Source: an uncultured Chthoniobacter sp. | GTDB taxonomy: Bacteria > Verrucomicrobiota > Verrucomicrobiia > Chthoniobacterales > JACTMZ01 | DNA: 64,000 bases | Direction: 5' to 3' | NCBI GenBank assembly: GCA_964609925.1 | Contig: CAZSUJ010000009.1 | Span: 4,290-68,289, forward strand | Part shown: piece by piece, positions 5,656 through 63,112 of the stretch | How positions within the stretch are numbered: the first letter of the stretch is position 1 | Layout of the letters: each line of letters begins with the position of its first letter | Position numbers and translations under genes: made by a program | The notes under the pieces: generated by a model | Databases searched by the model: none | What the model was told of the DNA's origin: nothing | The model's input: the letters and a program-made list of their open reading frames with translations, nothing else

Positions 5656-5798
5656 AAGCGAAGCCTAGGCCCCTGCCGCAGGATGGACCACGATAATGGG
5701 TAGCCTGCTCTTCGGGAATCTATGGCACGCGTCACAAAGCGCGTTTGCGCCGCCCGCATCTCCATGCTGGCGGTGCCCGGCTTCAGGAGGCACGAATC

Positions 5799-38316: not shown

Positions 38317-38317
38317 C

Positions 38318-40683: not shown

Positions 40684-41985
40684 TCAGGCGAGAGGCTCGT
40701 TGTTGGCAGTGACGTTGGTGAAACGCTGGCCTTCGACGTCCTCGAGGTGGAGGGCGGGACGTTCGTCCGCCTCGCGGGTCGAGAACTCGCAGTCGCGGAA
40801 GCGGATGTTGCGGGTGTGGCGCAGGAACAAGGCCCAGCTCGGCAGCGGGTGGAAGGCGGGGAATTCCGGATACTCCCCCTCCTGCTCGGGCACCGGGGCG
40901 TCGGAGCGTTTCCCTCCTCCGGGATACACGACGCGGACGTTATCGAACGTCACATCCTCGACGTTGTGGCCGGGGATGCCGGTGACGATGATGCCGGCCT
41001 TCCGCGGGTATTTCCCGTAGAGGAGGAAGCCCTCTTCCCAGACGTTGATGCGGACGTTGCGGATGACCACACCGCGCAGGATGCCGACGGGGCGGTCGGG
41101 TTGGTCGGCGAAATACTTGCGCAACCGCGAGCCGAGCCGGATGAAAATCGGCCCCGAAACGTTGTCCATGATGATGTTGTCTACCAGCACGTTCTCGAGG
41201 CGGCATCCATCCATGCTGATCACCTTGAGCCCTCCACCGTTCGTGTTGTGGATCACGATGTTGCTGAAGATGATGTTGCGGAAATCGCCAGCCGACTCGG
41301 TGCCGAGTTTGAGCGCACCCCAGTCGCTCGAGATGCGGCAACCGGTGACCACGATGTCCTCCGAAGGCGTGGCCCGCGTGGCCTTGATGCAAACGGCGTC
41401 GTCCCCCGTGTCGATGTCGCAGTCGCTGATCCGCACGCGGCGGCAGGAATCCACGTCGATGCCGTCGTTGTTGCTGTTGACCCGGCTGCGGATCGTCACG
41501 CCGTGGATGAGCACGTTCTCGCACCCGAGGTAGTGGCTGACCCAGCCGGGAGAGTTCTGCAGGGTCACGCCGGTCACCTGCACGTCGCGGCAGTCGATGA
41601 AACGCACCATGAACGGCCGTCCATCCTCCTCGAAGCCGTATTCCCCGCCGCTTCCGTCAATGATTCCCTGCCCAGTGATGGCGGTCCCCACGGTATCCTC
41701 GGCGTAGATGAGGCAGCGGTTGCGCTTCTGCCCGACGGCGTCGGTGAAGCCGCCCGCCACCTCCGGGTAATCCTCGATCCGGGGGCTGCCCTTCAGCGTG
41801 CAGCCGTTGTCGAGGTGGAGGGTGACGTTGGAACGGAGGTGGATCGTCCCGATGAGGTAGAGCCCGGCTGGCACGCGGACCGTGCCACCGCCGGCGGCCG
41901 CGGCTGCGTCGATGGCTCTCTGCAGGGCCTTGGTCTGGGGTTGGTCGGTGCTGGGGCGCACGCCGTGTTCGGTGGCGGTGGTCAT
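40684..41985 (-). CDS. GH28 polygalacturonase-like glycoside hydrolase
   Basis: The start is probably ATG 41985 (MTTATEHG...). KALQRAIDAAAAAGGGTVRVPAGLYLIGTIHLRSNVTLHL...NNDGIDVDSCRRVRISDCDIDTGDDAVCIK are GH28 catalytic motifs (NxDGID / GDD). No signal peptide is evident. Confidence 0.9.
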   Translation of the reverse strand: MTTATEHGVRPSTDQPQTKALQRAIDAAAAAGGGTVRVPAGLYLIGTIHLRSNVTLHLDNGCTLKGSPRIEDYPEVAGGFTDAVGQKRNRCLIYAEDTVGTAITGQGIIDGSGGEYGFEEDGRPFMVRFIDCRDVQVTGVTLQNSPGWVSHYLGCENVLIHGVTIRSRVNSNNDGIDVDSCRRVRISDCDIDTGDDAVCIKATRATPSEDIVVTGCRISSDWGALKLGTESAGDFRNIIFSNIVIHNTNGGGLKVISMDGCRLENVLVDNIIMDNVSGPIFIRLGSRLRKYFADQPDRPVGILRGVVIRNVRINVWEEGFLLYGKYPRKAGIIVTGIPGHNVEDVTFDNVRVVYPGGGKRSDAPVPEQEGEYPEFPAFHPLPSWALFLRHTRNIRFRDCEFSTREADERPALHLEDVEGQRFTNVTANNEPLA

Positions 41986-42102
41986 GGTGGGGAGGCTTTG
42001 GAATGTGTGGTCGCCGCGGCGCGGAGACACAGCATGTTCCTAACCCGGGCCGCACCCGCGGGCCAGCGGCGGGTGCGAGTAAGGAGGGAATAATTCTCTA
42101 AG

Positions 42103-48447: not shown

Positions 48448-49848
48448 ATGACACGCTTCCTACTCGTCGTCCTCGTCCTTCTCGTTGCCGCCTACTTCGG
48501 TTGGCGGCAGGTGCAGCAGCCACCGCCGCCACCCGCGCCGGCGGTGGTGGTTGAGGCGACTCCTGCTCCGACTCCGGAGGCAACCCCCGAACCGGTCGCC
48601 ACACCACGCGTCGCGCCCGAGGGGATGGTCTACGTGGTCCGTCGCTTCACGGTGTCCACTCCGCAGGGTATTCATGCCTTCACGCCCGGGCGCGAGGTGC
48701 GCTTCATTCGCGAGGAGCCCGGCTACTACGTCGTGGCGGACGGCGATGTGGAGGGCCGCGCTCCCCGGCTTTGGTTCACGAGGGATGCAGAGGAGGCCCA
48801 TGCGCTGCGTGAGGAGCACCTCAGCGCGGAGGAGGTCGCCGCGCGCCTGCTCGAACAATCGCAGCGGCAGGCGGCCGATTTCGAGGCGCGGGAGCGGGCC
48901 AAGGTGGACGCTTTTGCGGGGGCCCTGCAGGGCCGGGGCGCCACGCCGGCACCGGCGACCAAGCCTGAGCCGGCGCCCGCAGCGGCATCACCGGCCGAGG
49001 CGCCTTCCGGCCCCCTTCGCATCGGGGCGTGGAACCTGGAGTTTTTCGGCAGCCGCAAGGATCCGCCGAGGACGAAGGACGACGTGCAGGCGATCGCGGA
49101 CTACATCCGGGGCCTCGGCGTGGCGGCGCTCGTGCTGACGGAGGTGGACGGCGAGGGGCCGGTGCACGAACTCTGCCGCCTCATCGGTCCCACGTGGAAG
49201 AGCGTCGTCGGCTCGAGCAAAAAGGGCGGCAACGCGTCCGCCCCGGAACAGGCCGTGGCCATCATCTGGGACGACTCGCGGCTCGACTTGGTTTCCGGCG
49301 GCGAACTGCGGCAGATGCCGCGCACGCTCGACGGCCTGCCCATCTTCCACCGATTGCCCGTGACGGCCGCCCTGCGCGATCGACGGGGCGGTCCCGATTT
49401 CCGCCTCGTGGGCGTGCACTTCAAGGCCGGACGCGACCCCGAGTCCAACCGCAAGCGCCAACTCGAGATCGGGGAGATCCGGCGCTACCTCGACGACCTG
49501 CGCGAAAACGACGGCGAGGACCGCGACGTCGTGGTTCTCGGTGATTTCAATTCCGGCGATGACTTTCCCGAGGCCAAGACGCTGACGGCGGGGCGTGAGT
49601 TTTCCTACCTCACCAAGCCGGGCGGGGGGACCAGCATCATCCACTTCAACCGGCAGATCGACCACATCGTTCCCGCGTCGGACTTCGACGAAATCCAGGC
49701 GGGCTCGTTCGACATCCACAACCGTGAAGGGTTGGCCAACCGCGAGGAATGGCGCAACCGCTACTCCGACCACTTCCCGATCACCGTGGGCGTCAGCCAG
49801 AAGCCCGATGACGACCCGGACGCGGCATTCTCACCTCCGGGGGGATAG
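48448..49848 (+). CDS. Membrane-anchored endonuclease/exonuclease/phosphatase (EEP) family protein
   Basis: 466 aa. MTRFLLVVLVLLVAAYFGW is an N-terminal TM segment. It is followed by a Pro-rich linker, a small domain, a charged helix (EEHLSAEEVAARLLEQSQRQAADFEARERAKVD) and an EEP core (LRIGAWNLEFFG...VLTEVDG...VGVHFKAG...VVLGDFN...IDHIV...SDHFPITV). Confidence 0.85.
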   Translation: MTRFLLVVLVLLVAAYFGWRQVQQPPPPPAPAVVVEATPAPTPEATPEPVATPRVAPEGMVYVVRRFTVSTPQGIHAFTPGREVRFIREEPGYYVVADGDVEGRAPRLWFTRDAEEAHALREEHLSAEEVAARLLEQSQRQAADFEARERAKVDAFAGALQGRGATPAPATKPEPAPAAASPAEAPSGPLRIGAWNLEFFGSRKDPPRTKDDVQAIADYIRGLGVAALVLTEVDGEGPVHELCRLIGPTWKSVVGSSKKGGNASAPEQAVAIIWDDSRLDLVSGGELRQMPRTLDGLPIFHRLPVTAALRDRRGGPDFRLVGVHFKAGRDPESNRKRQLEIGEIRRYLDDLRENDGEDRDVVVLGDFNSGDDFPEAKTLTAGREFSYLTKPGGGTSIIHFNRQIDHIVPASDFDEIQAGSFDIHNREGLANREEWRNRYSDHFPITVGVSQKPDDDPDAAFSPPGG

Positions 49849-50247: not shown

Positions 50248-52326
50248 TCAGGGCTGCAGCACGGCCTCGATGCCCAGGAACTGGTTCGTCGAGGTGCGCG
50301 GGGTGCTGAAGATCTGACGCGCCGTGCCGAAGGGCACGCCGGACTGATCAACCGCATTGCTCTGCGTCACGGTATTCGTGGTCCACGGACCGGTAGCCAG
50401 GTTGGTCGTGGTCCGTCCGATGACCGAGAGGCTCGGGTTGTTCGTCCGGACGATGGCCGTGATGGACAGCAGGTTCGTCGTCAGAGTGGTGACGGACGGA
50501 ACGCTGTTGTTGTTCGTCGGGCCGCTGGCGCCGCCGACCGCGTAGAGGCTGAGGTTCGTCGTGTTGAGCGGTGCGCCCTGCGCCCAGCTCGTGAACGTCG
50601 CCCCTCCATTGTCGTTGCTCCAGAAGACCAAGGGCAGGGTCTGCACCACATTCGAGGGCCCGAGCACCCAGCTGCGGTTCTCGAAGAGGTCGTTCGGGTT
50701 GACGATCTCGTAGCCGTTGTTCACGGGGAAGCCGGGGCTGTAGAACTTGTATTGGTTGGTCGTGCCGGGGGCGCCCGAGATCGCGAACTCGCCCACGTAG
50801 ATGTTCGAGCCGGCGTTGGTCAGGTTGTAGTTCGTGTTGCCGGTCTCGTAGTTCTGCCCGTTGAAGTTGCCGATGACACGGACGACTCCGCCGTTCGTGT
50901 TGAAGTTGCCGTTGGCCACCTGCACGGTCATGTCAACCGAGAAGGACACGGGGCGGCTGGCCGGGACGTTGGTCTGGTTGTTCCAGAACACGGTGGGCTC
51001 GACCTGCGCGGGAGTCGGGCTGCCGTTCGTGTTCAGGGCGAGCACCAACTGGCGGTTGGGATCGTTCTCGTAGCCGCTGTTGGGCATGCCGACGCTGTAG
51101 AATTTGTAGGCGATGTTTTGCCCGTCCAAGCCGGCGATGTTCGAGATCGTTCCGGTGAAGACGCTGTTCGTGCCGGGGGTCAGGATGTTCCCCGAGGCCC
51201 CGCTGGTGTCCCAGTTGTTGAACGCGCCGACCACGAGCACATCGTTCGTGCCGTTGTAGTTGCCGAGCGCCTCTTGCACCGACATGTCCACGGAGAAGGT
51301 CACGTCGCGGAAGCCCTGGATGTTGTTGTAAAACACCGTGGGGAGGGTGAGGGGAGGCGGGGTGGAATTGGTCCCGACCGCGAAGGTCCGGTCAGGCGAG
51401 GTTTCGAGTGAGGCATCGATGGCGAATTTGTAGTTCACCGATGTCCCGTAGAACCCCGGGATGGCAAAGGTGCCTTCGAAGATACCGTTGGTGTCCCCGT
51501 CCGAGAGTTCATAAGCGAGATCACCGGGCGTGAACCCGTTCCAAGCGCCCGCGACGGTGACCACGTTCAGGGCCGGGTTGAAGTTAGTTATGGCCGTCTG
51601 CACGTTCATGTCCACCGAGAAGGTTACGGTGTTGGTGATGGAGAGCGCCGAGTTGGCCAGCGTGTAGGAATTGATGGGGTTAGTGCCGCCCGAAGTGTAG
51701 GGGCCGCCCCAACCGGTGACCGATACGTTCGGGTTCGCCAAGGCATCAAGCGCGCTATCTCCGCCGCCGCTGCCGGAGGAATAAGCATCAAAATAAAGGA
51801 CGCTGCCCAGATTGGTGGTCCCCAAACTGGCTTTGCTCACCGTGTAGTTGATGGTCGAGGTGCCGTTGGTGTTGGTGGCGAACGTGTAGGCGGTGAGGTT
51901 GCCAAGGTTGGTGCTCCAGTTGGTGCCAGTATAGCCCCAGATCTGTGAGCCGCCACCGCCGTTGACCCAAGAACCGATCCAGCGCGTCATGCCGCCAGTC
52001 GGGCCGTTGAGCTGGATCGGGCGATTCCAGCCGTTGCCGGTGTTGGTGTTTGTTGTGGCACCCGTCGCTATGCCGATCATCAAGTTGGCCCAGTCGTTAG
52101 GAGAGGCGATGATGCCATTGACGGTGAGGTTGAAGATCACGTCGCTGCTCGTGTCGGACACCTCCATCTTCACGATGTCCAAGGTGCCTCCGGCCGTCGG
52201 GAGGTTCGTCGCGATGTCACCGATCGCATCCGTGTAAATTGTCGGCTGCGCCAGCAAAGAGCCGGCGGTGAGGCTGAAAACGGCGAAGAACGCGCAGACG
52301 CGCACAACGAGGGGGCGGATTTTCAT
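50248..52326 (-). CDS. Secreted N/T/G-rich protein: glucodextranase-C-like N-domain, three tandem CBM20-like (starch-binding-fold) modules, shared C-terminal domain
   Basis: 692 aa. The signal is MKIRPLVVRVCAFFAVFSLTAGSLLA|Q. DAIGDIATN...LDIVKMEVSDTSSDVIFNLTVNG forms the N-domain. There are three about 105-aa repeats, each opening (T/D/P)V(T/S)FSVDM.VQ and containing ...V.G.(W/F)N....YKF... The C-terminus is NLSLYAVGGASGPT...LSITAIVRTNNPSLSVIGRTTTNLATGPWTTN...RQIFSTPRTSTNQFLGIEAVLQP. Confidence 0.85.
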   Translation of the reverse strand: MKIRPLVVRVCAFFAVFSLTAGSLLAQPTIYTDAIGDIATNLPTAGGTLDIVKMEVSDTSSDVIFNLTVNGIIASPNDWANLMIGIATGATTNTNTGNGWNRPIQLNGPTGGMTRWIGSWVNGGGGSQIWGYTGTNWSTNLGNLTAYTFATNTNGTSTINYTVSKASLGTTNLGSVLYFDAYSSGSGGGDSALDALANPNVSVTGWGGPYTSGGTNPINSYTLANSALSITNTVTFSVDMNVQTAITNFNPALNVVTVAGAWNGFTPGDLAYELSDGDTNGIFEGTFAIPGFYGTSVNYKFAIDASLETSPDRTFAVGTNSTPPPLTLPTVFYNNIQGFRDVTFSVDMSVQEALGNYNGTNDVLVVGAFNNWDTSGASGNILTPGTNSVFTGTISNIAGLDGQNIAYKFYSVGMPNSGYENDPNRQLVLALNTNGSPTPAQVEPTVFWNNQTNVPASRPVSFSVDMTVQVANGNFNTNGGVVRVIGNFNGQNYETGNTNYNLTNAGSNIYVGEFAISGAPGTTNQYKFYSPGFPVNNGYEIVNPNDLFENRSWVLGPSNVVQTLPLVFWSNDNGGATFTSWAQGAPLNTTNLSLYAVGGASGPTNNNSVPSVTTLTTNLLSITAIVRTNNPSLSVIGRTTTNLATGPWTTNTVTQSNAVDQSGVPFGTARQIFSTPRTSTNQFLGIEAVLQP

Positions 52327-52411: not shown

Positions 52412-52438
52412 CACCTCCCCGGCTGGGCCGGGGAGGTG
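52412..52438. repeat. Perfect 11-bp inverted repeat (stable hairpin) in the divergent intergenic region
   Basis: CACCTCCCCGG-ctggg-CCGGGGAGGTG. There is no flanking T-tract on either strand, so it is not a classical terminator. Confidence 0.7.
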
Positions 52439-52531: not shown

Positions 52532-53062
52532 ATGAATCAGCCAGAGTTGGCAGTCCGCAGTCCGCAGTCTTCAGGTTCGCAGCTGGCCTCCCGCTCCCTG
52601 ACTCCCGATGCCTGCTGCCACCGCGCCCGGCGCCCCTTCGATGCCTTCACCATGATCGAACTGCTCGTGGTCATCGCCATCATCGCGATCTTGGCCGGCC
52701 TCACTCTCTCCACTCTCGGCTACGTGAACCGCAAAGGCGCGGAATCCCGCGCCCGCGCCGAGGTGGCGGCGCTCTCTACCGCCATCGACAGCTTTTTCGC
52801 CGATTACGCGGCCTACCCGGCCTCGAACAACCTTTTCCGCGAACTCACGGGCCACAGCGCGGCGCCCATCAACACCAATCGCAAAGTCTTTTTCGAGCCC
52901 CCCGCCAACATCACGACCAACCTGACCACCGGTCCATTCATTGATCCTTGGGGAGCGGCCTACAACTACAACCCCAGCAACCCCGTCAACAACGTTGGCT
53001 TCTACGACCTGTGGACAACTGCTGGCGGGAAAACCAACCAGCGCGACTGGATACGAAATTGA
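52532..53062 (+). CDS. GspG-like major pseudopilin (prepilin-type N-terminal methylation domain) with a 38-aa leader
   Basis: ...RARRPFDA|FTMIELLVVIAIIAILAGLTL has the class III signal core with E at +5. The GspG-like body has RAEVAALSTAIDSFFADYAAYP, IDPWGAAYNYNP and YDLWTTAGGKTNQRDWIRN. Confidence 0.85.
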   Translation: MNQPELAVRSPQSSGSQLASRSLTPDACCHRARRPFDAFTMIELLVVIAIIAILAGLTLSTLGYVNRKGAESRARAEVAALSTAIDSFFADYAAYPASNNLFRELTGHSAAPINTNRKVFFEPPANITTNLTTGPFIDPWGAAYNYNPSNPVNNVGFYDLWTTAGGKTNQRDWIRN

Positions 53063-53802
53063 GCGAGGTGCTTCCAGTCGTTAGTCGTCAGTCGTCAGCA
53101 GGAAGAGACTGCGGCCACGCCTGGGTTCGCGCGCTGGGCCGCATTCTTCATTACCGCTCGACTCGTCACTCGCCACCCGTCACTCGTCACCGCGCCCGCC
53201 GCGCGGGCGCCTTCACCCTTCTCGAACTTCTCATCGTCATCGGCCTTATTGCCGTTCTCATGGGGCTGACCCTTCCTGCTTTGCAGGGCCTCTTCGGTGT
53301 GGCCGGTCGGCGGGGCGGGGTGAACGTCCTCGCCGGCGCGATGGAGCAAGCCCGCCTGATCGCTATCCAGCACGGTGTGTCCTCCTACGTGGGTTTCCCG
53401 ATGGCTTTGGCCGACAAGGAGACGGCCTGGAACTCGGTGATTGTGTTCCGTGAGACACGTGCCGATGAGCGAGCGACCAACCCGGCGCAGTTCGCGGTGA
53501 TCAGCCGGTGGTTGCGTTACCCCACCGGCGTTTTTGTTGATCCCGGGACCATTCCTTCTGCCACCGTGAGCATTACTAACCTTCCGCGCTTAGCCAACCA
53601 GCCCGTCACACAGGTGTCAGCCGTCCAATTTGACCGTTTCGGCAAGCTCCGGCCCGAATCGCCCCTCCGGATCCATGTGGGTGAGGGTGTCGTGCAGGGA
53701 TCCACGGTCCGGTTCCGGCCGACGACGAACAATTTCAACGCCCTCAATATCCTCCCGCTCACCGGGCGCGTCAAAATCACCGACGGGGTCCTCGGCGAAT
53801 GA
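53059..53802 (+). CDS. GspH-like minor pseudopilin; start inferred (TTG 53059 overlapping the upstream stop, or GTG 53068)
   Basis: RARRAGA|FTLLELLIVIGLIAVLMGLTLPAL is followed by VNVLAGAMEQARLIAIQHG, a GspH/FimT-like helix. There is no ATG/GTG/TTG between 53068 and the hydrophobic segment, which implies a 48-51 aa leader. Confidence 0.7.
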   Translation: MSEVLPVVSRQSSAGRDCGHAWVRALGRILHYRSTRHSPPVTRHRARRAGAFTLLELLIVIGLIAVLMGLTLPALQGLFGVAGRRGGVNVLAGAMEQARLIAIQHGVSSYVGFPMALADKETAWNSVIVFRETRADERATNPAQFAVISRWLRYPTGVFVDPGTIPSATVSITNLPRLANQPVTQVSAVQFDRFGKLRPESPLRIHVGEGVVQGSTVRFRPTTNNFNALNILPLTGRVKITDGVLGE

Positions 53803-54440
53803 AAACGTCACAGTTTCCGACGCGCACGCGCAACGCACGGGCTGCGGGCACTCGGGCTTTCCCCTGCCTTCCTTCCCCCGTCCCCCGCTCAACCTCTGCC
53901 GCTTCGCCCCAGCGCTCCGCTTTCAGCCTCGTCGAAGTCGTCATCTCCATCGGCATCTTTGCCTTCGTTATCGTCGGGATCGTGGGACTGTTTCCGGCCG
54001 CCCTGCGGGTGCGGTCCGAGTCCGCCCTCGACACCCGGGCCGCCATGATCGCGCAGCAATTGATGGCTGCGGTGGATTCCTCGTCCAGCCTGACCAACGT
54101 GGTTGTGCCCACCGGGGCCTACACGGGGAACCCGGCGACCCGGACGGTCAATGTCCTGCAGAGCAATTTCCCCACGGTCCTTGGCTACCAGTCGCGCAGC
54201 ACCTTTCCGTTCTGGTATTTCCGGACGGCTCCCAACAGCTCCTGGACCAATGCCGGGGGGAGTGACCAAGAAATCGCGCAGTCAGCCGCCAATGAGATCA
54301 CCACCTTGGTGCGCATGTCGGCCACCACCAACAATCTCAACAACCTGGCACAGATCACGATAGAAGTGCGCTCGCCGGCCGCCTTGTCCCTCTCGAATTC
54401 CCGCGTCGTCACATTCACCACCCTGCGCCCGCTGCAATGA
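53799..54440 (+). CDS. GspI-like minor pseudopilin with a 41-aa leader
   Basis: MKTSQFPTRTRNARAAGTRAFPCLPSPVPRSTSAASPQRSA|FSLVEVVISIGIFAFVIVGIVGLF. ATGA overlap with the upstream gene. Confidence 0.75.
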   Translation: MKTSQFPTRTRNARAAGTRAFPCLPSPVPRSTSAASPQRSAFSLVEVVISIGIFAFVIVGIVGLFPAALRVRSESALDTRAAMIAQQLMAAVDSSSSLTNVVVPTGAYTGNPATRTVNVLQSNFPTVLGYQSRSTFPFWYFRTAPNSSWTNAGGSDQEIAQSAANEITTLVRMSATTNNLNNLAQITIEVRSPAALSLSNSRVVTFTTLRPLQ

Positions 54441-55171
54441 AGACGTCGCCACCCTCCTCATCGCTCCCCGCCCGTCATGGGGTGGCCGTCGGAGGCTTCA
54501 CCCTGATCGAGTTGCTGGTCTCATCCGCCATCCTCGGCATCGTGATGTTCATTCTGCTCTCGACGCTCACGACGTCCCTGTCGTTGTGGCGGACAACCGA
54601 GGCAAGTATCTCGTCCGACCGCGAGGGTCGCTCGGCGAACCTCCTGCTCGCCCAGGATCTTGCCAACGCCGTCATGCCCACGAACCCGGCCCTCTGGCCG
54701 CAGGTCACCCCGAACTCGCTGCGCTTCCTCACCCTCCGTTCGCCGGAGTATCAAGGAGCCACCAACGGCGTCGGTGACCTGTGTTTCGTGGAGTATCGGG
54801 TCGGGCCCGACACCACCAGCAGCACGACCAACTTCGTTGCGCTGACTCGCAACTTCGTGGGGAGCACGGCTACTTATGCGGCGCTCAAGAATGGCAACTT
54901 CCCGACGGTTGACGCGTCGCGGGCCCAGTTGCTTGCGGCCAACGTGGTCCCGAACCGCCGCGTCCTTTATTATAACAACGACATCACGGACGCCTATTTC
55001 AACGCCCTCGGCACAAACGGCCTTCCGGTCACCGCCAACGCCCGTCCGGCCATTATCGACGTGACCATCTCCACCGCCGACGAGGAAGGCGTGCGCACTC
55101 TCGACATAACCAACAAGCAGTTGCGGAGCGGGGGGTATTTCTCCTTCCGTGTCGCTCTGCCCAGACCATGA
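54437..55171 (+). CDS. GspJ-like minor pseudopilin
   Basis: MKTSPPSSSLPARHGVAVGG|FTLIELLVSSAILGIVMFILLSTLTTSLSLWR is PulJ-like. ATGA overlaps at both ends. Confidence 0.75.
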   Translation: MKTSPPSSSLPARHGVAVGGFTLIELLVSSAILGIVMFILLSTLTTSLSLWRTTEASISSDREGRSANLLLAQDLANAVMPTNPALWPQVTPNSLRFLTLRSPEYQGATNGVGDLCFVEYRVGPDTTSSTTNFVALTRNFVGSTATYAALKNGNFPTVDASRAQLLAANVVPNRRVLYYNNDITDAYFNALGTNGLPVTANARPAIIDVTISTADEEGVRTLDITNKQLRSGGYFSFRVALPRP

Positions 55172-58100
55172 AGAAAACCCCCAACTGCCCACACGAGGAA
55201 AAGGGCGCCGTGCTCGTCACGACGCTCATCGTCCTCACCGTTCTTGCGGTCGTTGCCGTCGCTTTCATGCAGAGCAGTTCGATGGACCAGCTCGCCTCGC
55301 GCAGCGTGTCCGGCGCCTACCAGGCCCAGTTGATCGCCGACGCGGCCGTCGGGGTCGCGCGCGGGGAGGTGGCCCGCCTGATCCAGCGCTACCCGGATTC
55401 CGCCACGGTCTGGCAGAACATCGGGGGAGGTCAGACCAACGAGGCCACCGTTCTCTATGTGCGTGCCGACGCCAACAACACCAGCACCAACGCCCGGCCC
55501 GGCCAGTCTGGCGCCGAGGTGGCCTTCCTCGGCTACCCGCTCGTCTCCCGCACAAATACGAATCCGCTGACGCTTCCTGTCCTGGCGACCAACATGCCTT
55601 TCACCACGGCCAATCGGGAGATGGTCAACCTGAACGCGACAAACTCCAGTCGCTCGAACGCCTTCATCGGCCAACGCTCGATGACAAATCCCGGCGCACC
55701 AGTCGCCGCCGCCGACTGGATCTACATCGGGCGGAACCCCGGCCCGACCAACACCACCAATCCGCCGATTGGCCGGTATGCCTACTGGGTTGAGGACGAG
55801 AGCTTCAAGGTCAACGTCAATACCGCTACCAACGGGGCCCGGGGCACCAGCACGAACATCGGTCCCGACGGCGTCCGCTTGGACGGCTCGTGGCAGAGTT
55901 CCTCCAACGCCGCCGTGCGCGCCGCCGCAGCCGCCACCGTGGTGTCGGATCGCGGAACCAACGCATCCTTCTTCCCGACGGCCGGCTCGGCTGCCGTGGC
56001 CGCGGGCTTGCCCGATTCGCGCTCGGCTGACGAGTTCCGCTTCCTCACCACCGCGCACTCCGCCGGTCTCGACCTCTCCCGCGGCGGATTCCGGCGTTTC
56101 AACCTCAACACCATCACCAACGGCGACAAGCGCACTGCTCTCAACCGCGTCATCACCGCGATAACCAACTCCAACGCAGCCCCGCTATTCGGCCAGCGGT
56201 TTTACCGCACCAACAACAACGTTTTGGGCATCAACGACACCAACGCCGTCTCTACGAACCACGCGGCCATCTACCTCCAGAAGATCGCGGCGAACATCTA
56301 CGACTACCTCGACAGCGACGACCAGCCGACCATCATCAATAACGACGCCACCTACACCCTGCGCACCGGGCGGCCGACGGAGCCGATCTTCGCCGTCGGT
56401 GGAGGATATGACGGCAGCAATTCCATCGCGGCTTTCGGCGTCGAGAGTTTCCCGCGTCTGCAGGAATGGGCCATGCACGCGAGGGTGTGGCGGATGTCCT
56501 ACAGCAACGGCCCCGACAGCCGCAGCAATTTCGGGTTTGTGCACAACGCCACCAACCCCACCGCGAATCCCACTCGGGCTGACTACGAAATCTGGCTGGA
56601 CTACTACTTCGAGTTTTACAACCCCGGCACGCGAGACATCACGGTCAGCAATGCGTTCATCACGCTCGACAAGTTGCCGGCGTTCGACGGCGGCGGGTCA
56701 GGGGATGCACTCGCCAACGAACGCTCGATCACCAACATCCCGTTGAATGCCACCTTCCCCGCGGGCCGGGTCACGATCCTCTCCACGGCACCCATCGGGG
56801 AGGACAGCTTTTCGAGCAGCAGCTCCGGAGGCATCATCACCAACCGGGCGGACGTCGTTTATCTGACAGTTGCCGATACCAACCGCAAATTCACGGGCTT
56901 CACCACCAATATTGCAGTGCAAACTTACGACCCTGTCGGCGACAACCGGGTTCCGCCGAATCCGAACTTCAATCGCCTTTTCCAAGTCTCGATGAGGACC
57001 GGTCCCCAGACCAAAGGCTCCATCTTGATCGGAAACGACGCTGGCATCTTGGAAAGCTTTGTCGGGCTTCCATTCAACGCCCAGACTAACCCCAACGTCA
57101 GCGGTATGGCACTGAGGATCGGAAGCGGCTGGATCCGCAATGGGCTGATGACCATCGGCGATGGCAACAACGACAATGTGCGTGCGGCGAGCCTTTTTGG
57201 GAACAGTAATGACGGCAACGCCCGCCCTTCAGCCACCGAGGGCGATCCGCGGGCACTGAACGATCAATTGGAGTTCTTCAACTTTGCGACGAGCAACGCT
57301 GACCGCGACCAGACGCGCTTCTATGTCGCCGTCACCGGCAACTCGGGGCTCCCCGAGAACTCGACATTCGGCAGCCTCAACACCAATTACGTGTGGGCGA
57401 CGAACTGGACGGACTACACGCCTTGGCAGCCGAACTCGAACAATGCCCCGCTTTTCGTCCGAAACAGCCCCATGCTCAGCGTCGGTGAACTCGGCCACAT
57501 CACCGATCCGGCCCGGACGCTTGGCTCCTCCGGCAACATCGCCCGCTCGCGGGGAGGCGGGAGAACATTCCGGATCGGGCAGCCCGAGTTGACCAACGCG
57601 AACAGCCCCTGGCGCCAGGCCTGGTATACAGGAAGCCAGACCAATGCCAGCCGCACATGGACGTCTTGGCGTCTGGCCGACATCTTCACCGTCACCACAA
57701 ACACGAACGTGGCCATCCGCGGCCTGGTCAACCCGAACGGCGCCCTGCGTGACAACGGCGCCGCCCTGCGCGCCGCCCTCTTCGGACTTACCTTCCTCCC
57801 CGTCACCCCCGAAGGCGCCTCCTCCCTTGCGGGACGGGGAGCCAACGTTAGCAACGTGGTCAGCAATGTGGTGGCCCGCCTCACCAACGGTGCCGCGTCA
57901 GGCTTCGGCGCCGGGACCTTTAACCCGTTCTGGGAGCGTGGCGAGATCTCGGAACTGGCCGTCCTCAACTCATCCGCCTCGGGCACCGTGGCCGGTGGTG
58001 CGGTCATGTCGAACGCATTCGACCGTGGCCGCGAAGAGTTGGTGCGCCGCTCCATCGAGATGATTACCACGCGTGGTAGCGTCTTCACGGTCTATGCCGT

Positions 58101-58302
58101 CGGCCAGTCGTTGCGCGTCACCCCCAACTCAACTAATGTCACCGGCACGGTGACCGCCAAGAGCACCTTCGAGATCACTCCGCAGTTTGCGATCGGTGGA
58201 ACGAATGACGCTTTTGATCTGGCCAATGCCAACGCTGTCACCCGGCGTTTCCTGCCCCCCACCAACTACACCACCAAGGTCATCTCCACGTCCTACGATT
58301 AG
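55168..58302 (+). CDS. Giant (1044 aa) GspK-like pseudopilin-tip protein
   Basis: EEKGAVLVTTLIVLTVLAVVAVAFMQSS is a GspK-type non-cleaved hydrophobic N-terminus (RG.AL..VL...). GRYAYWVEDESFKVNVN matches the T2SSK signature (F/YA.wieDE..KiNlN). The remainder is N/T/S/G-rich with no family I recognise. Confidence 0.8.
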   Translation: MKKTPNCPHEEKGAVLVTTLIVLTVLAVVAVAFMQSSSMDQLASRSVSGAYQAQLIADAAVGVARGEVARLIQRYPDSATVWQNIGGGQTNEATVLYVRADANNTSTNARPGQSGAEVAFLGYPLVSRTNTNPLTLPVLATNMPFTTANREMVNLNATNSSRSNAFIGQRSMTNPGAPVAAADWIYIGRNPGPTNTTNPPIGRYAYWVEDESFKVNVNTATNGARGTSTNIGPDGVRLDGSWQSSSNAAVRAAAAATVVSDRGTNASFFPTAGSAAVAAGLPDSRSADEFRFLTTAHSAGLDLSRGGFRRFNLNTITNGDKRTALNRVITAITNSNAAPLFGQRFYRTNNNVLGINDTNAVSTNHAAIYLQKIAANIYDYLDSDDQPTIINNDATYTLRTGRPTEPIFAVGGGYDGSNSIAAFGVESFPRLQEWAMHARVWRMSYSNGPDSRSNFGFVHNATNPTANPTRADYEIWLDYYFEFYNPGTRDITVSNAFITLDKLPAFDGGGSGDALANERSITNIPLNATFPAGRVTILSTAPIGEDSFSSSSSGGIITNRADVVYLTVADTNRKFTGFTTNIAVQTYDPVGDNRVPPNPNFNRLFQVSMRTGPQTKGSILIGNDAGILESFVGLPFNAQTNPNVSGMALRIGSGWIRNGLMTIGDGNNDNVRAASLFGNSNDGNARPSATEGDPRALNDQLEFFNFATSNADRDQTRFYVAVTGNSGLPENSTFGSLNTNYVWATNWTDYTPWQPNSNNAPLFVRNSPMLSVGELGHITDPARTLGSSGNIARSRGGGRTFRIGQPELTNANSPWRQAWYTGSQTNASRTWTSWRLADIFTVTTNTNVAIRGLVNPNGALRDNGAALRAALFGLTFLPVTPEGASSLAGRGANVSNVVSNVVARLTNGAASGFGAGTFNPFWERGEISELAVLNSSASGTVAGGAVMSNAFDRGREELVRRSIEMITTRGSVFTVYAVGQSLRVTPNSTNVTGTVTAKSTFEITPQFAIGGTNDAFDLANANAVTRRFLPPTNYTTKVISTSYD

Positions 58303-58347
58303 GCCCGGAGATTGACTTTTTTGGCGGCTTCCTTTCCCTCTCTCTTC

Positions 58348-59337
58348 ATGATGATAAAGACGTTCGTCCATTCCGTTTGCGCCATCACCTTGCTGTTCTC
58401 GATCACCGTTTGCTCGGCCCAGACCAGCCCGGATGGAGTGGTGGGGGTCGGGGCCAGCGAAGTGCCCAAGGCCCAGTTGAGGCTGTTTGTCTTCCCCTTC
58501 GACGACTCCTCTCCGGCGCTCGTGGCCCGCGCCCAGGTCAAGGGCATGGAAGCACCCGCGGTGGTCGCCTCCGCGCCGGCCGGACGCAGCTCTGCTGAAC
58601 CGGGCTACGTTGATTTTCCCGCCGGCGATGGCGGCTACGAGGTGCTCGCGGGGGACAAACCCGTCGCCACCGGCCCCCTGCGGCTCGCGCCCAACCGCGC
58701 TTACACCATCGTCGCTTGGCAGGGTGGAGACCGCGCCTGGCAGGCCAAGCTGTTTTCGGATGATTCGGCGTCTTCCGCGCGTGCTATGCGTGTTCTGAAC
58801 TTCGTTCCCGGCCGCAAGTCGGTCGTGAGCGCCGGCGAGGCCGAGCCGGCCGCCGTGCCTGCCGCCACCGTGCAGGAGGTCCAGGTTCCGGCCAAGACCC
58901 TCGATATCCGCGCCCAAGTCCAAGACCCCGCAGGCGGCGCTCCTTTCCAGACCTCCACCGCATTCGACTTCTCCCAGGCCGGAAGCGGCTACCTGCTGAT
59001 CGCACCCGACTACCGCGGCAAGCCGGACATCAGAATGGTTCCCGGCGGTTTCGTCACCGCGACCGCCGAGGTTGCGGCGGCCGCCTCGGCCCCTGTGGCG
59101 CCGCCCAGCGCCTCGGACATCCAGAAAGAGGCTCAACAGACCCGTAAGCGTAGCCTGGCCTACCTCAAGCAGGCCCTCGCCGATCTGGAGGCCCTGCAAG
59201 CCGGACCGAATCCTCCCCCCAACGCCGACGCCATCCGGCGGGAGCTCCAGCAGCAACTCAAGGCCGTGGACCAACCCGCGGCTCCGGAGCCTGCTCCCGC
59301 CGCCCCTCGGGGAGCTGCGGCCGAGGCCGCGAGGTAG
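58348..59337 (+). CDS. Secreted hypothetical protein (beta-rich body plus C-terminal coiled-coil/Pro-Ala tail)
   Basis: MMIKTFVHSVCAITLLFSITVCSA|Q is a signal peptide. The 5' end is locally AT-rich. The C-terminus is DIQKEAQQTRKRSLAYLKQALADLEALQ...IRRELQQQLKAVDQPAAPEPAPAAP. The TTG at 58312 in the track is less likely as a start. Confidence 0.7.
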   Translation: MMIKTFVHSVCAITLLFSITVCSAQTSPDGVVGVGASEVPKAQLRLFVFPFDDSSPALVARAQVKGMEAPAVVASAPAGRSSAEPGYVDFPAGDGGYEVLAGDKPVATGPLRLAPNRAYTIVAWQGGDRAWQAKLFSDDSASSARAMRVLNFVPGRKSVVSAGEAEPAAVPAATVQEVQVPAKTLDIRAQVQDPAGGAPFQTSTAFDFSQAGSGYLLIAPDYRGKPDIRMVPGGFVTATAEVAAAASAPVAPPSASDIQKEAQQTRKRSLAYLKQALADLEALQAGPNPPPNADAIRRELQQQLKAVDQPAAPEPAPAAPRGAAAEAAR

Positions 59338-59593: not shown

Positions 59594-62500
59594 ATGACCA
59601 CCACCCGCCCCGCCCTCCGACTCCTCGCCGCTGCTGCTCTGGCGTCCTGCCTCAGCGCCACTGCTCACGCCCAACAGACATTCTTCAACTTGGCTGCCGG
59701 CAACTACTCGCAGGATTTCTCGAGCATAGGAGCATGGTCGAACAGCTACGCTGGCGGGACAGGGGCTGAAAACTGGCGGGTGGCCACCAGCGTGGCCTCC
59801 TCTCTGGTCACCAACGTCAACGTCTTTACCACCGCCACAAGCGGAGGCGTGCAAAGGGGCACGAACTCCATGGTGTTCCTCGCCACCGGCGCAAACACCG
59901 GCGGCACGGATCTGCTCCTTAACTTTTCCGGGCGCACATCGGGAATAATGAGCTTCAATTGGAGCAAGATCGCCAACACGCCTAACGAGACCAACGCCCG
60001 TTCCTCAGATCTGAAGGTGCAATACAGCACGGACAATGGAACCAACTTCACGGACATTACCAACTACGCTATCCCCCGCATCAACAACAACAGCACTCCG
60101 GAAAGCGGCAGCCTGAATTTCTCACTGCCCTCCGCGCTTTCCGGCCAACCCCAAGCCGTGCTGCGCTTCTTTTTCTGGAACAACGGGCAGGTCGGCGGTG
60201 CAGGCAATCGCCCCAAATGGAACATCGACGACGTCTTGATTACGTCGTCGGGTGCCGCCACCGCCCCGGTTGTGACCTCCTTCTCTCCGGCGACTGGTGC
60301 GGCAGGGACCTCGGTGACCATCGGCGGTTCGAATTTCACCGGCGCCACCAACGTCTCGTTCAATGGCGTGGCAGCTACTTTTCTCTTCAACAGTGACACC
60401 AGTATCACCGCTTCCGTTCCCGTTGGTGCCTTGAGTGGTCCGATTTCGGTCGCCAGCACCAATGGGACGGGCCTGAGCAGTAGCAATTTCCTCGTGCCTA
60501 CGCTCTCTGTCATCCTACCGGCCACCATCAACGAAGGTGATACCAGCTTCGGCGAGGTCACGCTTAACGAGACAAACGCCTCGGACATCAACGTGACCGT
60601 GACCAGTTCAAGCACGAACGATCTCGTGATCGACCCTGCGCCTATCGTCATCTTCGCCGGCCTTACCAACGCCTTCTTCAATTTCACCGCACCGCTGGAT
60701 AGCACGATCGACGGCGACACCAACGTGACCGTGACACCCTCCGCGGCTGGTTTTGCCTCCATCCCCGACACCATCACAGTAGTCAATGTGGACGCGGTGA
60801 AGATCCCGCTGACCTCGTTCTCCACGAACAGCTACATTCAGAATTTCGACAGCCTCGGCACCACCACGGTCTCCAATGTTGTTTCGCTCACCAGCGGAGT
60901 GCAGACCAGCTTGGGGACCGCCATAAGCACCAACCTGAACGGATGGTTCGCGGCCAAGATCGCCGGTAGTGCTGGTATCCCGAACGTGGTGGCCGATAAC
61001 GGCAGCAGCTCCAGCGGAGCGGTCTACAACTACGGCACAACTGGTGCCACGAACAGGTCGCTGGGCGGGCTCGCCAGTGGCAGTCTGACTCCCGCGTTTG
61101 GCGCATTGGTGGTAAACAACACCGGATCCACCATCAACTCCATTATCCTCAACCTCACGGGCAAATTCTGGCGGCCCTCGGCAGCCAACACTAACTCACT
61201 CAACTTCGCCTTCGGCGTCGTGGACGGAGTCAGCGTCAACAACAACAACTTCCTCACCACAGCCTCGGCCACCAATCTCTCGCTAGCGAACATAGTCGGT
61301 CCGGTGGTTGCTACCACCAACGACCAGACTCCCCTGGACGGCAACCTTGCCACCAACCAAGTCTTGATCAGCAACGTCGTCATTCCAGTGAGTTTGGCGC
61401 CCGGCGAGACGATGTTCTTCCGCTGGCAAGATTTCGACAACGTGAATGCCGACGCCGGCCTCGCCATCGACGACCTCAGCCTGACCGCGTCAACTAACCT
61501 TGCCGCTCCGTCGGTTGCCGCGGTCACCGTCAATCCGTTTGCCCTCGCCCAGGATCAGGCCCAGATCGCCTCCTCGGTTGTTTCCGAGGGTGGCTCAACC
61601 CTGACGGCCCGAGGCTTCGTCTATTCCGAGAGCTTCTTCAATACGAACCCGGTCATCGGCGGTCCGAACACGACGGCGATCACGAACACACCGGCCGAGG
61701 TTGGTGCCTTCACCAACACGATCACCGGCCTCCTCGCCAGCACGGCCTACACAGTTCGTTCCTTCGCCATCAATGCCCAGGGCACAAACTACAGCGTCGG
61801 GACGACCTTCAATACACTCGCGCCCAACCCGGCCTTCAGCGGGGTCTACACCCAGAGCTTCGACGGCCTGACCAATACGTTCTTCCCGAACGGTTGGCGC
61901 TGCCTCTCGACCAGCAACGTGAACAACTATGCGGGCGATTGGAACAGCACCAATGCTGTGGCCGTGGGCTTCTACGGCCGCACCAACATCCCCGGCATCC
62001 TCGGCTACCTCCACGGCAACGCGACTGGTATCCTCAGCAATCGCCTGACACTGGTGAACAACACAGGTGGAACACTGACCAACCTCTGGGTGTCTTACAC
62101 CGGTGAGGTCAATGTGCTGAATCCCACCAGCAACACCCGCTTCCCTGAGTGGACCGTGGTGGTGGACGGGCAGACCAATAGCGCCCTCTTCTACTCCACC
62201 GCGGGCGGCGTCAGCTCGAACCTCGTGGCGGAGATCACCGGGCTTAGCATCACGAATGGCGGTAACATCATCATCTCGTGGTCGTCCGATCGCGGCGCTG
62301 GCACCGGCTCGTCCCGCATGATCGGCATGACGGATGTCCGCGTGGCGACCAACGCGCCGCCGATCGGGACCCCGACCATCAACGTGAGCGGTTCGCTGAC
62401 GAACTTCACCACCACGGTCGGCACGGCCTCCGCCTCGCAGTCCTTCACGGCCTCGGGCACCAATCTGGTTGGCGACATCGAGGTGTCGACGCCGGCCTTC

Positions 62501-63049
62501 TACCAAGTGAGTGTGGACAACACGAACTTCTCGGGGGCCTTGAACCTGGCGCCGTCCGGCGGCGTGGTGACCAACACCTTGCTCTACGTCCGCCTCGCCG
62601 CGAACGCACCGGTCGGCAGCCCCGCCGGTAACGTGCTGCTCGGCAGCACCAACGCCGCGATCCAGACGGTGCCGGTGACCGGCACGGTCTTCAGCACCTA
62701 CACGGCATGGCTCAATGGTGCCCCGACGAACAATGCCAACCTGCTCAAATACGCCATCGGCGGCGCGAGCAGCCCGACGGCGACGGACGGCACGGCGCCC
62801 GCCACGGCAGTGACCAGCAGCAACCTGTCCATCACCGCCATCGTGCGCACGAACGACCCGGCCCTCGACGTCATCGGCGAAGGCCTGACCAACCTGAGCG
62901 TCGGTCCTTGGAGCACGAACGGCGTGACCCAGACGGTCTCGACGAACCAGGCGGGCGTGCCCACCGGCACCGAGCGGCAGATCTTCAGCATCCCGCGCGG
63001 CACGAACACCAGCCAGTTCCTCCGCCTCGACAGCATCCTGCAGCCGTAA
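59594..63049 (+). CDS. Large (1151 aa) secreted adhesin-like protein: three Y.Q.FD.LG-type sensor/binding modules, IPT/TIG, Calx-beta-like and Fn3-like domains, shared C-terminal domain
   Basis: The signal is MTTTRPALRLLAAAALASCLSATAHA|QQ. IPT/TIG evidence: PVVTSFSPATGAAGTSVTIGGSNFTGATNVSFNGVAA. Three modules begin YSQDFSSIG / YIQNFDSLG / YTQSFDGLT and end in ...IDDV/IDDLSL/MTDVRV. The C-terminus is NLLKYAIGGASSPT...LSITAIVRTNDPALDVIGEGLTNLSVGPWSTN...RQIFSIPRGTNTSQFLRLDSILQP. Confidence 0.85.
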   Translation: MTTTRPALRLLAAAALASCLSATAHAQQTFFNLAAGNYSQDFSSIGAWSNSYAGGTGAENWRVATSVASSLVTNVNVFTTATSGGVQRGTNSMVFLATGANTGGTDLLLNFSGRTSGIMSFNWSKIANTPNETNARSSDLKVQYSTDNGTNFTDITNYAIPRINNNSTPESGSLNFSLPSALSGQPQAVLRFFFWNNGQVGGAGNRPKWNIDDVLITSSGAATAPVVTSFSPATGAAGTSVTIGGSNFTGATNVSFNGVAATFLFNSDTSITASVPVGALSGPISVASTNGTGLSSSNFLVPTLSVILPATINEGDTSFGEVTLNETNASDINVTVTSSSTNDLVIDPAPIVIFAGLTNAFFNFTAPLDSTIDGDTNVTVTPSAAGFASIPDTITVVNVDAVKIPLTSFSTNSYIQNFDSLGTTTVSNVVSLTSGVQTSLGTAISTNLNGWFAAKIAGSAGIPNVVADNGSSSSGAVYNYGTTGATNRSLGGLASGSLTPAFGALVVNNTGSTINSIILNLTGKFWRPSAANTNSLNFAFGVVDGVSVNNNNFLTTASATNLSLANIVGPVVATTNDQTPLDGNLATNQVLISNVVIPVSLAPGETMFFRWQDFDNVNADAGLAIDDLSLTASTNLAAPSVAAVTVNPFALAQDQAQIASSVVSEGGSTLTARGFVYSESFFNTNPVIGGPNTTAITNTPAEVGAFTNTITGLLASTAYTVRSFAINAQGTNYSVGTTFNTLAPNPAFSGVYTQSFDGLTNTFFPNGWRCLSTSNVNNYAGDWNSTNAVAVGFYGRTNIPGILGYLHGNATGILSNRLTLVNNTGGTLTNLWVSYTGEVNVLNPTSNTRFPEWTVVVDGQTNSALFYSTAGGVSSNLVAEITGLSITNGGNIIISWSSDRGAGTGSSRMIGMTDVRVATNAPPIGTPTINVSGSLTNFTTTVGTASASQSFTASGTNLVGDIEVSTPAFYQVSVDNTNFSGALNLAPSGGVVTNTLLYVRLAANAPVGSPAGNVLLGSTNAAIQTVPVTGTVFSTYTAWLNGAPTNNANLLKYAIGGASSPTATDGTAPATAVTSSNLSITAIVRTNDPALDVIGEGLTNLSVGPWSTNGVTQTVSTNQAGVPTGTERQIFSIPRGTNTSQFLRLDSILQP

Positions 63050-63077: not shown

Positions 63078-63112
63078 GCAGAGCGGGGAGCAATCCCCGC
63101 TCTGCCTTTTTT
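63078..63112 (+). terminator. Rho-independent terminator
   Basis: GCAGAGCGGGGA-gcaa-TCCCCGCTCTGC followed by CTTTTTTG, 29 nt after the stop at 63049. Confidence 0.8.

Follow-up and report, generated by a model that had tools for sequence, protein, structure and literature searches.

The 64,000-nucleotide stretch analysed here, referred to below as the window, derives from an uncultured Chthoniobacter sp. (assembly GCA_964609925.1, contig CAZSUJ010000009.1) and encodes at positions 55168-58302 of the + strand a giant protein of 1044 residues, termed A, which is the last of five adjacent pilin genes. With a probability of roughly 0.7, A is the apical minor pilin of a type-4-filament pilin cassette that is a distant relative of the Verru_Chthon D-B-C-A cassette. 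Type-4 filaments, which comprise the pseudopili of type II secretion systems (T2SS) and type IV pili, are initiated and capped by a complex of H-, I-, J- and K-type minor pilins, and the role of the tip is set by the K subunit or by a PilY1-type partner. Both the N-terminal sequence of A and its position in the cassette support its assignment as a K-type (GspK/PilX-family) minor pilin, and its additional mass would thus be expected to be displayed at the filament tip.

The open reading frame of A starts with ATG, comprises 1044 codons and lies exactly where a first-pass annotation of the window had placed a GspK-like protein of about three times the usual size. Canonical GspK/PulK proteins have ~300-350 residues, and the GspK homologs gathered with E. 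coli GspK range from 286 to 393 residues, confirming the difference in size. A public record on an independent contig contains a protein identical to A, flanked by the same neighbors. More than 120 homologs of 960-1240 residues cover 93-100 % of A at 44-76 % identity, while an exhaustive HMMER profile search of 1.84 billion cluster representatives (clustered at 50 % identity) retrieved 1,570 relatives at E ≤ 1e-3, of which 626 reach E ≤ 1e-10 and 252 reach E ≤ 1e-30. These representatives are mostly 950-1290 residues long and match mostly end to end, the best profile matches spanning residue ~6 to the final residues of the family members. A is therefore a genuine gene rather than a chance reading frame, and its size is normal for its family. 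The N-terminus displays a leader (residues 1-13) that ends in the conserved Gly13, followed by helix α1 (residues 14-74; together 55168-55389, +), and includes the hydrophobic string GAVLVTTLIVLTVLAVVAVAF at residues 13-33. Pfam PilX_N matches residues 12-61 of A above its gathering score (E 2.7e-7) and was found in 41 of 42 family members. Profile comparison with hhalign against a 38-sequence GspK alignment paired residues 8-84 of A with GspK 1-77 (96 %). Across 137 members, Glu is never found at position +5 after the conserved Gly, where T, I, V, S, L, A or Q stands instead; the residue there is Thr in A, and the mature N-terminus would read AVLVT... if cleavage occurs after Gly13. A missing Glu5 is a hallmark of the apical filament subunit (PMC13533445; bioRxiv 10.64898/2026.02.12.705559). 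The GspK-type hydrophobic N-terminus noted in the first-pass annotation is therefore upheld by PilX_N, by hhalign and by the lack of Glu at +5.

A scan of one genome per species identified 57 related loci. Almost all of them come from Chthoniobacterales, and three metagenome-assembled genomes (MAGs) contain at least two to three loci each. In ~40 of 47 loci, the giant gene is immediately preceded by three prepilin genes (~200, 160 and 260 residues). By sequence comparison, A is the last of five pilin genes, G-D-B-C-A, whose order (G-, H-, I-, J- and K-like) matches the E. coli gsp operon. Prepilin N-methylation motifs are present in all four genes upstream of A, which lie on the same strand, and ATGA overlaps are observed at the D/B, B/C and C/A junctions. 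Profiles built from the related loci were compared with E. coli Gsp proteins by hhalign. G (52532-53062, +) is a GspG-like major pilin or pseudopilin with the prepilin site ...D/AFTMIELL, Pfam N_methyl and T2SSG matches above the gathering score and a full-length alignment to E. coli GspG (98.5 %, E 3e-15, 124 columns); its start is uncertain, as the open reading frame opens at 52436 and the ATG at 52532 agrees with the public gene call. A G-like gene is found upstream in the closest subfamily only. D (53011-53802, +; site G/AFTLLELL) is a GspH-like minor pilin resembling cassette protein D, with TIGR02596 as its top, sub-threshold match, and aligns with GspH (89 % over 136 columns) and with GspG (95 %). 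B (53799-54440, +; site S/AFSLVEVV) is a small GspI/PilV-like minor pilin resembling cassette protein B, whose N-terminal helix matches NCBIfam TIGR02598, XpsI and PilV models; its hhalign assignment is ambiguous (GspI 53 %, GspJ 56 %), while in its small size it is like GspI. C (54437-55171, +; site G/GFTLIELL) is a GspJ-like minor pilin resembling cassette protein C, with TIGR02599 as top, sub-threshold match and an alignment to GspJ at 95.7 % (E 8e-9, 165 columns). Homologs of D occur in 38 of the 57 related loci, and those of B and of C in 44 each. Separately, the prepilin leaders were observed to be unusually long in B (40 residues, 53799-53918, its ATG being the sole possible start) and in D (at least 47 residues, 53011-53211); that of C has 19 residues. 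Directly downstream of A, a signal-peptide protein with a weak DUF4397 match (58312-59337, +; 341 residues from the TTG at 58312, the public call starting at 58348) has counterparts at the same position in 7 close and 9 distant loci, where it is sometimes duplicated. The close and distant sets are homologous (hhalign 97 %, E 1e-10), and this gene looks like a fifth, undescribed member of the cassette, judging from these comparisons.

The GspK likeness of A is supported as remote homology plus genomic position, not as family membership. Neither Pfam T2SSK (PF03934) nor T2SSK_1st (PF21687) matched A or any of 42 full-length members at E ≤ 10; the first-pass annotation had itself named the absence of a T2SSK domain in a hidden Markov model search as speaking against its assignment. 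When subdomains were isolated, T2SSK_1st matched 1 of 10 only (E 0.024, 15.8 bits against a gathering threshold of 26.2). The NCBIfam GspK model NF037980 scored 19.6 bits on A against a cut-off of 130, through the N-terminal helix only, and PDB sequence-profile searches with the family alignments A1 and A3 found nothing. A GspK-like α-subdomain is recovered by profile-profile comparison only. This putative T2SSK_1st-like helical subdomain spans residues 297-392 (56056-56343, +), from RRFNLNTIT to IAANIYDYLDSDDQPT. With the N-terminal helix left out, residues 286-406 of A aligned with GspK 80-176 (86 %, E 5.6e-6), RRFNLNTIT pairing with 'cFNLNAL' and IAANIYDYLDSDDQPT with 'DWIDxD' of GspK. Alignment of the subdomain to the first α-subdomain of GspK reached 86-92 % with A1 (E 5e-7 to 6e-6) and 78-86 % with the more diverse A3, and the single sub-threshold T2SSK_1st match begins at the same FNLN motif. 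Thus, the part of the earlier proposal that stands is a remote homology to GspK, carried by the N-terminal helix and residues 297-392, while membership in T2SSK is not supported and the homology does not rest on the motif that had been named as its core signature. That motif, GRYAYWVEDESFKVNVN (residues 202-218, 55771-55821), ends the first β-strand block (residues 78-210, 55399-55821, +), which is defined by model strands and invariant columns; those in the region of the motif are R203, A205, W207 and E209-K214. GspK is reached from this stretch at ~1 % probability and in alternative hhalign alignments only. The stretch is instead the best-matching part of A to NCBIfam TIGR02600 and belongs to that likeness. 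Its equation with the GspK 'DxQxxFNLN' strand was rejected as evidence (~1 %), although the two may still be structurally equivalent. Internal duplication of 'strand-NxN-helices' units in A was not significant.

The ~700 residues by which A exceeds a canonical GspK had been described as an extension added to a GspK core. This was not borne out: the additional sequence probably lies within the chain, with the first half of the pilin sheet before it and three C-terminal strands after it. A first AlphaFold2 run, based on 42 close homologs (45-76 % identity), gave a model (m1dc3dcd96339) with a predicted local distance difference test score (pLDDT) of 63 and a predicted template modelling score (pTM) of 0.48, and its interpretation was rejected in favor of a second run, in which cluster representatives at 27-45 % identity were added to give 102 diverse sequences. 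Residues 740-970, the worst predicted in the first model, are also the region with the most invariant motifs. The second model (ma43da7c6f905; 55168-58299) displays one compact body with a pLDDT of 91.3 and a pTM of 0.90. Along the chain, helix 14-74 is followed by strands within 78-124 and 181-210, helices 238-293, short strands at FNLN, helices 321-381, a β-rich block (389-634), an irregular region to ~770, helices 772-965, a long hairpin (972-1006) and, at the very C-terminus, a last strand (1033-1043). The three C-terminal strands, 972-984, 989-1006 and 1033-1043 (58078-58299, +), are defined by this model and by profile matches that extend to the last residues, and strand 1033-1043 is a candidate in-cis 'C-β' strand. 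The α-domain of GspK sits between strands 3 and 4, while the solenoid of ComZ is placed between the last strand and the one before it (PMC6561018), and completion of the sheet by a C-terminal strand in cis follows the published framework (PMC13533445; PMC6561018). With three strands after the insert, it is the GspK arrangement that fits A. The model therefore points to ~760 extra residues that probably lie within the pilin fold, where GspK has its insertion, with the last strand closing the sheet in cis.

Within the insert, a β-rich module and the irregular region that follows it occupy residues 393-770 (56344-57477, +), with model strands from 416 to 634 and pLDDT values mostly of 84-97. Scanned alone, the module had no Pfam match, Pfam LTD matched weakly in 4 of 42 members, and Foldseek returned only weak lamin-tail/immunoglobulin-like matches (E 0.005-0.05). 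No lectin or carbohydrate-binding module (CBM) signature was detectable in the insert by Pfam or Foldseek. The most conserved region is mainly helical (residues 771-970, 57478-58077, +) and carries the invariant motifs SVGELGH, RGGGRT.RIGQPE, WRLADIF, NPNGALRDNGAALRAALFG, ERGEISEL and DRGREELVRRSIEMIT. This region, by its invariant columns and a weak hhalign match to GspK 170-327, is possibly the second half of a GspK-like α-domain. The C-terminal third of A is weakly collinear with that part of GspK (E 0.03, 0.05 and 0.002), the weak pairings comprising APLFVRNSPMLSVGELGHI with 'PPY..AN......SELR', LVNPNGAL..ALRAALFG with 'ININT...LL.AL' and RGSVFTVYAVG with 'S.YF'. When residues 85-285 and 393-750 were spliced out, the remainder of A aligned globally with full-length GspK (99 %, E 2.6e-18, ~295 of 327 columns), while a swapped-order control aligned one block only. 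Two observations weigh against an embedded GspK-type fold. The helix and the first subdomain account for most of the score of the spliced alignment, and a Foldseek search with the confident model lists neither GspK nor any pilin fold. The fold search that had been suggested for the additional residues gave weak lamin-tail/immunoglobulin-like matches in the module, no PDB fold neighbor for A, and no solenoid, ice-binding-protein or ComZ match.

The additional sequence had also been singled out as rich in Asn, Thr and Ser. These residues make up 28 % of A and 27-35 % of each of its segments except the N-terminal helix; because the content is the same throughout, it marks no separate compositional block. 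Two secreted neighbors of 692 and 1151 residues display 33-35 %, against 11-16 % in the cytoplasmic enzymes of the window, and this richness is a general trait of extracellular proteins in this organism.

Among the closest described systems are the Verru_Chthon proteins, which TIGRFAMs describes as a four-gene cassette and under which the giant protein is already catalogued at the level of the superfamily. A matches NCBIfam TIGR02600 (Verru_Chthon cassette protein A) at 54.9 bits (E 3.9e-15) against a cut-off of 332.3, and all 42 family members match the same model, the best at only E 2e-18. D, B, C and A have TIGR02596, TIGR02598, TIGR02599 and TIGR02600, respectively, as best or near-best NCBIfam matches, all far below the cut-offs; since its scores are that far below the curated threshold, A represents a sister family of TIGR02600 and not a member of it. 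The two systems share the phylum, the D-B-C-A order, a giant protein after three prepilin-type proteins (the TIGR02600 profile has 1296 positions), several copies per genome and the motif YWVEDESFKVN, common to A and TIGR02600. The subfamily of A differs in having the GspG-like gene upstream and the DUF4397-like gene downstream. Searches of the literature library on this cassette, and on GspK or minor pilins in Verrucomicrobia, turned up no relevant paper.

Relative to GspK (E. coli GspK; reference structure 3CI0, to which PMC13533445 and PMC6561018 refer), A is similar in following G-, H-, I- and J-like genes, in its Gly-hydrophobic N-terminus without Glu at +5, in the FNLN ... DY(W)xDxD helical subdomain and, probably, in bearing its extra mass in the middle of the sheet with three strands after it. 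In contrast, the first β-block of A is much larger, a β-rich module of ~380 residues interrupts the α-domain region, and A has neither Pfam T2SSK nor NCBIfam GspK membership nor genes of the Gsp machine in the window. K-type tip pilins of unusual size have been described before in other bacteria. ComZ of Thermus thermophilus is likewise a GspK-like pilin fold with a very large insert, for which a fit at the tip only has been argued and next to which a partner minor pilin is encoded; its insert is a β-solenoid of ~380 residues between the penultimate and last strands (PMC6561018), whereas A has ~760 residues followed by three strands, no solenoid-like Foldseek match and no evidence of DNA binding. 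The cyanobacterial PilX_EPS/HpsA-like proteins exceed 1,280 residues and have been suggested to take the place of PilY1 as plug or adhesin at the tip (bioRxiv 10.64898/2026.02.12.705559). They are, like A, giant K-type pilins without Glu5 that accompany three pseudopilin-like genes and occur as several sets in some genomes, but they belong to another phylum and bear a β-solenoid before the last strand, whereas A retains the GspK-like α-subdomain; NCBIfam HpsA matched neither A nor any of 42 members. CpaL of the Caulobacter Tad pilus (~600 residues) is, like A, a minor-pilin-like protein with a large middle region, and the extreme C-terminal strand of CpaL completes its own N-terminal pilin sheet (PMC13533445); it belongs to a Tad (type IVc) system, and no sequence similarity to A was detected. 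As a general rule, where a system has no tip adhesin, its K homolog bears a large insert ahead of the C-terminal strand (PMC13533445). PilY1/PilC proteins resemble A in constituting a large tip head, PilY1 being of comparable size, and the Sec-type paralogs of A described below parallel such non-pilin tip proteins; A differs in its pilin N-terminus and in lacking β-propeller and vWA signatures (Pfam and NCBIfam, 42 members). Modular pilins are widespread, with the module appended C-terminally through a linker, as in S. sanguinis PilB/PilC and in CofB (PMC8179133). A has no extra Pfam domain, and its module appears internal rather than grafted at the C-terminus because the conserved elements that complete the pilin lie at the C-terminus. 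What distinguishes A from the known cases is the GspK-type insertion site with a retained subdomain, the size of ~760 residues, the largest expansion of a K subunit among the published cases compared, HpsA apart, and the lack of a PDB fold neighbor. The link of K-type tip pilins to the Verru_Chthon cassette, the fifth cassette gene and the Sec-type paralogs are new. The finding builds incrementally on an established principle, and the function given to the head is a prediction.

By analogy with homologous systems, A would be inserted in the inner membrane and probably cleaved after Gly13, and would form a tip initiation complex with the GspJ-like C and the GspI-like B, which the GspH-like D would join to the GspG-like major subunit. 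A would remain at the apex because it lacks Glu5, and, as happens in GspK and CpaL, its own sheet would be completed in cis by its last strand. There is about an even chance that the embedded body of ~100 kDa is a built-in tip plug and ligand-binding head that replaces a PilY1/PilC-type adhesin, a role also put forward for ComZ, CpaL and cyanobacterial PilX/HpsA. Its polysaccharide-degradation context suggests glycans or co-encoded secreted proteins as ligands. The picture of the tip complex would thereby be extended to Verrucomicrobiota, the Verru_Chthon superfamily appearing to consist of tip complexes with an enlarged K subunit. The family of A is large and multi-copy within genomes and, in this subfamily, lies amid genes for polysaccharide degradation and for secreted proteins of large size. 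Binding of glycans by the head, if it occurs, would suggest a route by which abundant soil and freshwater bacteria contact insoluble substrates.

None of GspC, GspD, GspE, GspF, GspL, GspM, PilB, PilC or PilQ is encoded within the 64-kb window. In six distant loci, an operon with a type-4-filament assembly ATPase divergently adjoins the cassette. In L026 (1820-7788, −) it comprises genes for an MshEN/TPR protein, a GspE/PilB-type ATPase, an unassigned protein of 668-714 residues, a small Ras-like GTPase and MglB; it is also found in L029, L043 and L047, and partly in L014 and L030. By gene content, it resembles a polarity-controlled pilus motor module. MglA/MglB-like polarity genes are associated with pili rather than with secretion. 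The possibility that A tips a surface type IV pilus-like fiber, its head serving as adhesin or plug for polysaccharide particles or surfaces and the several cassettes supplying interchangeable tips, is a serious one, if somewhat short of even odds. It is favored by the PilX_N match, by the PilB-like ATPase, small GTPase and MglB that adjoin the cassettes of L026, L029, L043 and L047, and by the occurrence of at least two to three copies per MAG together with a window rich in glycoside hydrolases. There are published precedents in which K homologs with large inserts take the part of tip adhesin or plug in systems lacking PilY1, and no PilY1-like gene was found in the cassette by Pfam and NCBIfam scans. 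Against a surface pilus, the operon ATPase lies about equally near the cut-offs of the GspE model (614 of 630 bits) and of the PilB model TIGR02538 (643 of 676 bits), the major subunit is GspG-like rather than PilA-like, no gene for a retraction ATPase, a secretin or PilMNOP was found in any related locus examined, and the insert displays no lectin or CBM signature.

A short periplasmic pseudopilus of T2SS type, in which the giant K head would act in secretion and not in adhesion, by recruiting or pushing specific large cargo or by gating the secretin, is a rather unlikely alternative that draws on the same cassette. G is GspG-like over its full length with T2SSG above threshold, the G-H-I-J-K order agrees with the E. 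coli gsp operon, and the sole significant similarity of A past the helix is to the α-domain specific to GspK. The secreted proteins of 692 and 1151 residues, which would be candidates for cargo under this alternative, are kept beside the cassette in the closest subfamily, and the gene for the larger one shares the terminator of the transcription unit. These secreted neighbors are, however, missing from most cassettes, several cassettes occur per genome, no GspC, D, E, F, L or M gene accompanies the cassette in the window, and distant cassettes adjoin the ATPase operon with its MglA/MglB-like genes. A head of ~100 kDa, at least 60 Å across by a rough estimate, would also be large for a piston beneath a secretin.

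A different perspective is provided by ~13 close paralogs (P0005, P0016, P0017, P0019, P0039, P0045, P0051, P0073, P0085, P0087, P0090, P0116 and P0234), which are 44-67 % identical to A over residues ~50-1044 but have neither the pilin leader nor the initial half of the helix. Their sequences start instead with a Sec-type signal peptide and a β-rich domain of ~135-170 residues without Pfam match, and two of them have an added FGE-sulfatase domain. The Sec-type loci L003 (9452-13000) and L008 (9242-12697) have no pilin genes nearby and come from MAGs that also contain L002 and L004, which are cassette loci. The occurrence of the giant body off the filament argues for a function of its own. It is a rather improbable extension of this point that the body of ~970 residues is an autonomous extracellular unit, ligand-binding or catalytic and of a fold absent from the PDB, which can be mounted on a tip or released through Sec, paralogous cassettes then supplying interchangeable heads for polysaccharides or particles. 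If so, free Sec forms could compete for ligands or could cap I-J complexes in trans, like PilY1. The pairs of pilin and Sec-type paralogs constitute a natural experiment on a tip head on and off the filament. The same paralogs, found away from pilin genes as in L003 and L008, together with the failure of Foldseek to recover a pilin or GspK fold, could be taken to mean that A is no pilin at all and that its helix is the signal-anchor of a membrane-tethered or secreted binding protein or enzyme encoded beside pilin genes. This is very improbable, however, given PilX_N above threshold in 41 of 42 members, the conserved Gly with +5 never Glu, the translational coupling to three or four prepilin genes in ~40 loci, the GspK-like subdomain and the fact that Sec-type forms make up a minority and occur in one subfamily only. 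Fusion of two or more genes through a frameshift or misassembly, for which the unusual length of A alone speaks, is rejected as next to impossible because a large family matches A end to end (>120 full-length homologs, 252 representatives at E ≤ 1e-30), the identical protein occurs on an independent public contig, and AlphaFold2 gives a single compact model with a pTM of 0.90.

A is encoded amid genes for large secreted proteins, and the first-pass annotation had asked whether giant K homologs always co-occur with CBM- or adhesin-like neighbors. Such neighbors accompany the cassette in the closest subfamily, which conserves the GspG-like gene and the secreted proteins of 692 and 1151 residues; across the family they do not, and neighbor clustering over the related loci revealed only the four cassette genes and the DUF4397-like gene as recurrent, so that an invariable association was rejected. 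The 692-residue protein (50248-52326, −) is N/T/S-rich and secreted, is divergently encoded and has weak glucodextranase-C/CBM-like matches; its gene lies upstream and divergent in L002, L004, L007 and L024, the C-terminal domain being common to them. The 1151-residue N/T/S-rich secreted multidomain protein (59594-63049, +), with Reelin-B/F5_F8-like and TIG/CoaZ repeat matches, is conserved downstream in L002, L004 and L005 and is possibly co-transcribed with the cassette. Just past this gene, a bidirectional terminator-like hairpin (63078-63105, both strands), with a perfect 12-bp stem, 9 G-C pairs and a T-run on each strand, is the only strong terminator-like + strand site between 52200 and 63400 and is likely the end of the transcription unit, which suggests one long unit from G to the 1151-residue gene.

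The two secreted proteins share a C-terminal domain of ~115 residues (50251-50595, −, and 62699-63046, +) with the pattern LSITAIVRTN.P.L.VIG..TNL..GPW.TN.VTQ...FL.....LQP, which neither Pfam nor NCBIfam matched. Large proteins in L005, L044 and L051 end in this domain as well, and it may serve in sorting or anchoring. Upstream, a 466-residue protein (48448-49848, +) is anchored in the membrane at its N-terminus, and a Pro/Ala-rich linker leads to its endonuclease/exonuclease/phosphatase domain, which has weak likeness to MnuA and ExeM/NucH; L002, L010 and L024 likewise have this nuclease-like gene upstream of their cassettes. Positions 1-48306 of the window are dense in polysaccharide-utilization genes and giant secreted proteins. 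They include three matches to glycoside hydrolase family GH43 (5745-7337, 7327-8466 and 34724-~36200), an α-L-fucosidase (8463-10580), GH52 (within 36214-38661) and GH28 (40684-42030). Other genes of the window encode a SASA esterase, an L-fucose isomerase, a xylose-isomerase-like protein and a Kelch-fused sodium:solute symporter, and its large secreted proteins of 1492, 2154 and 1462 residues display PA14, F5/8-C and HYR domains.

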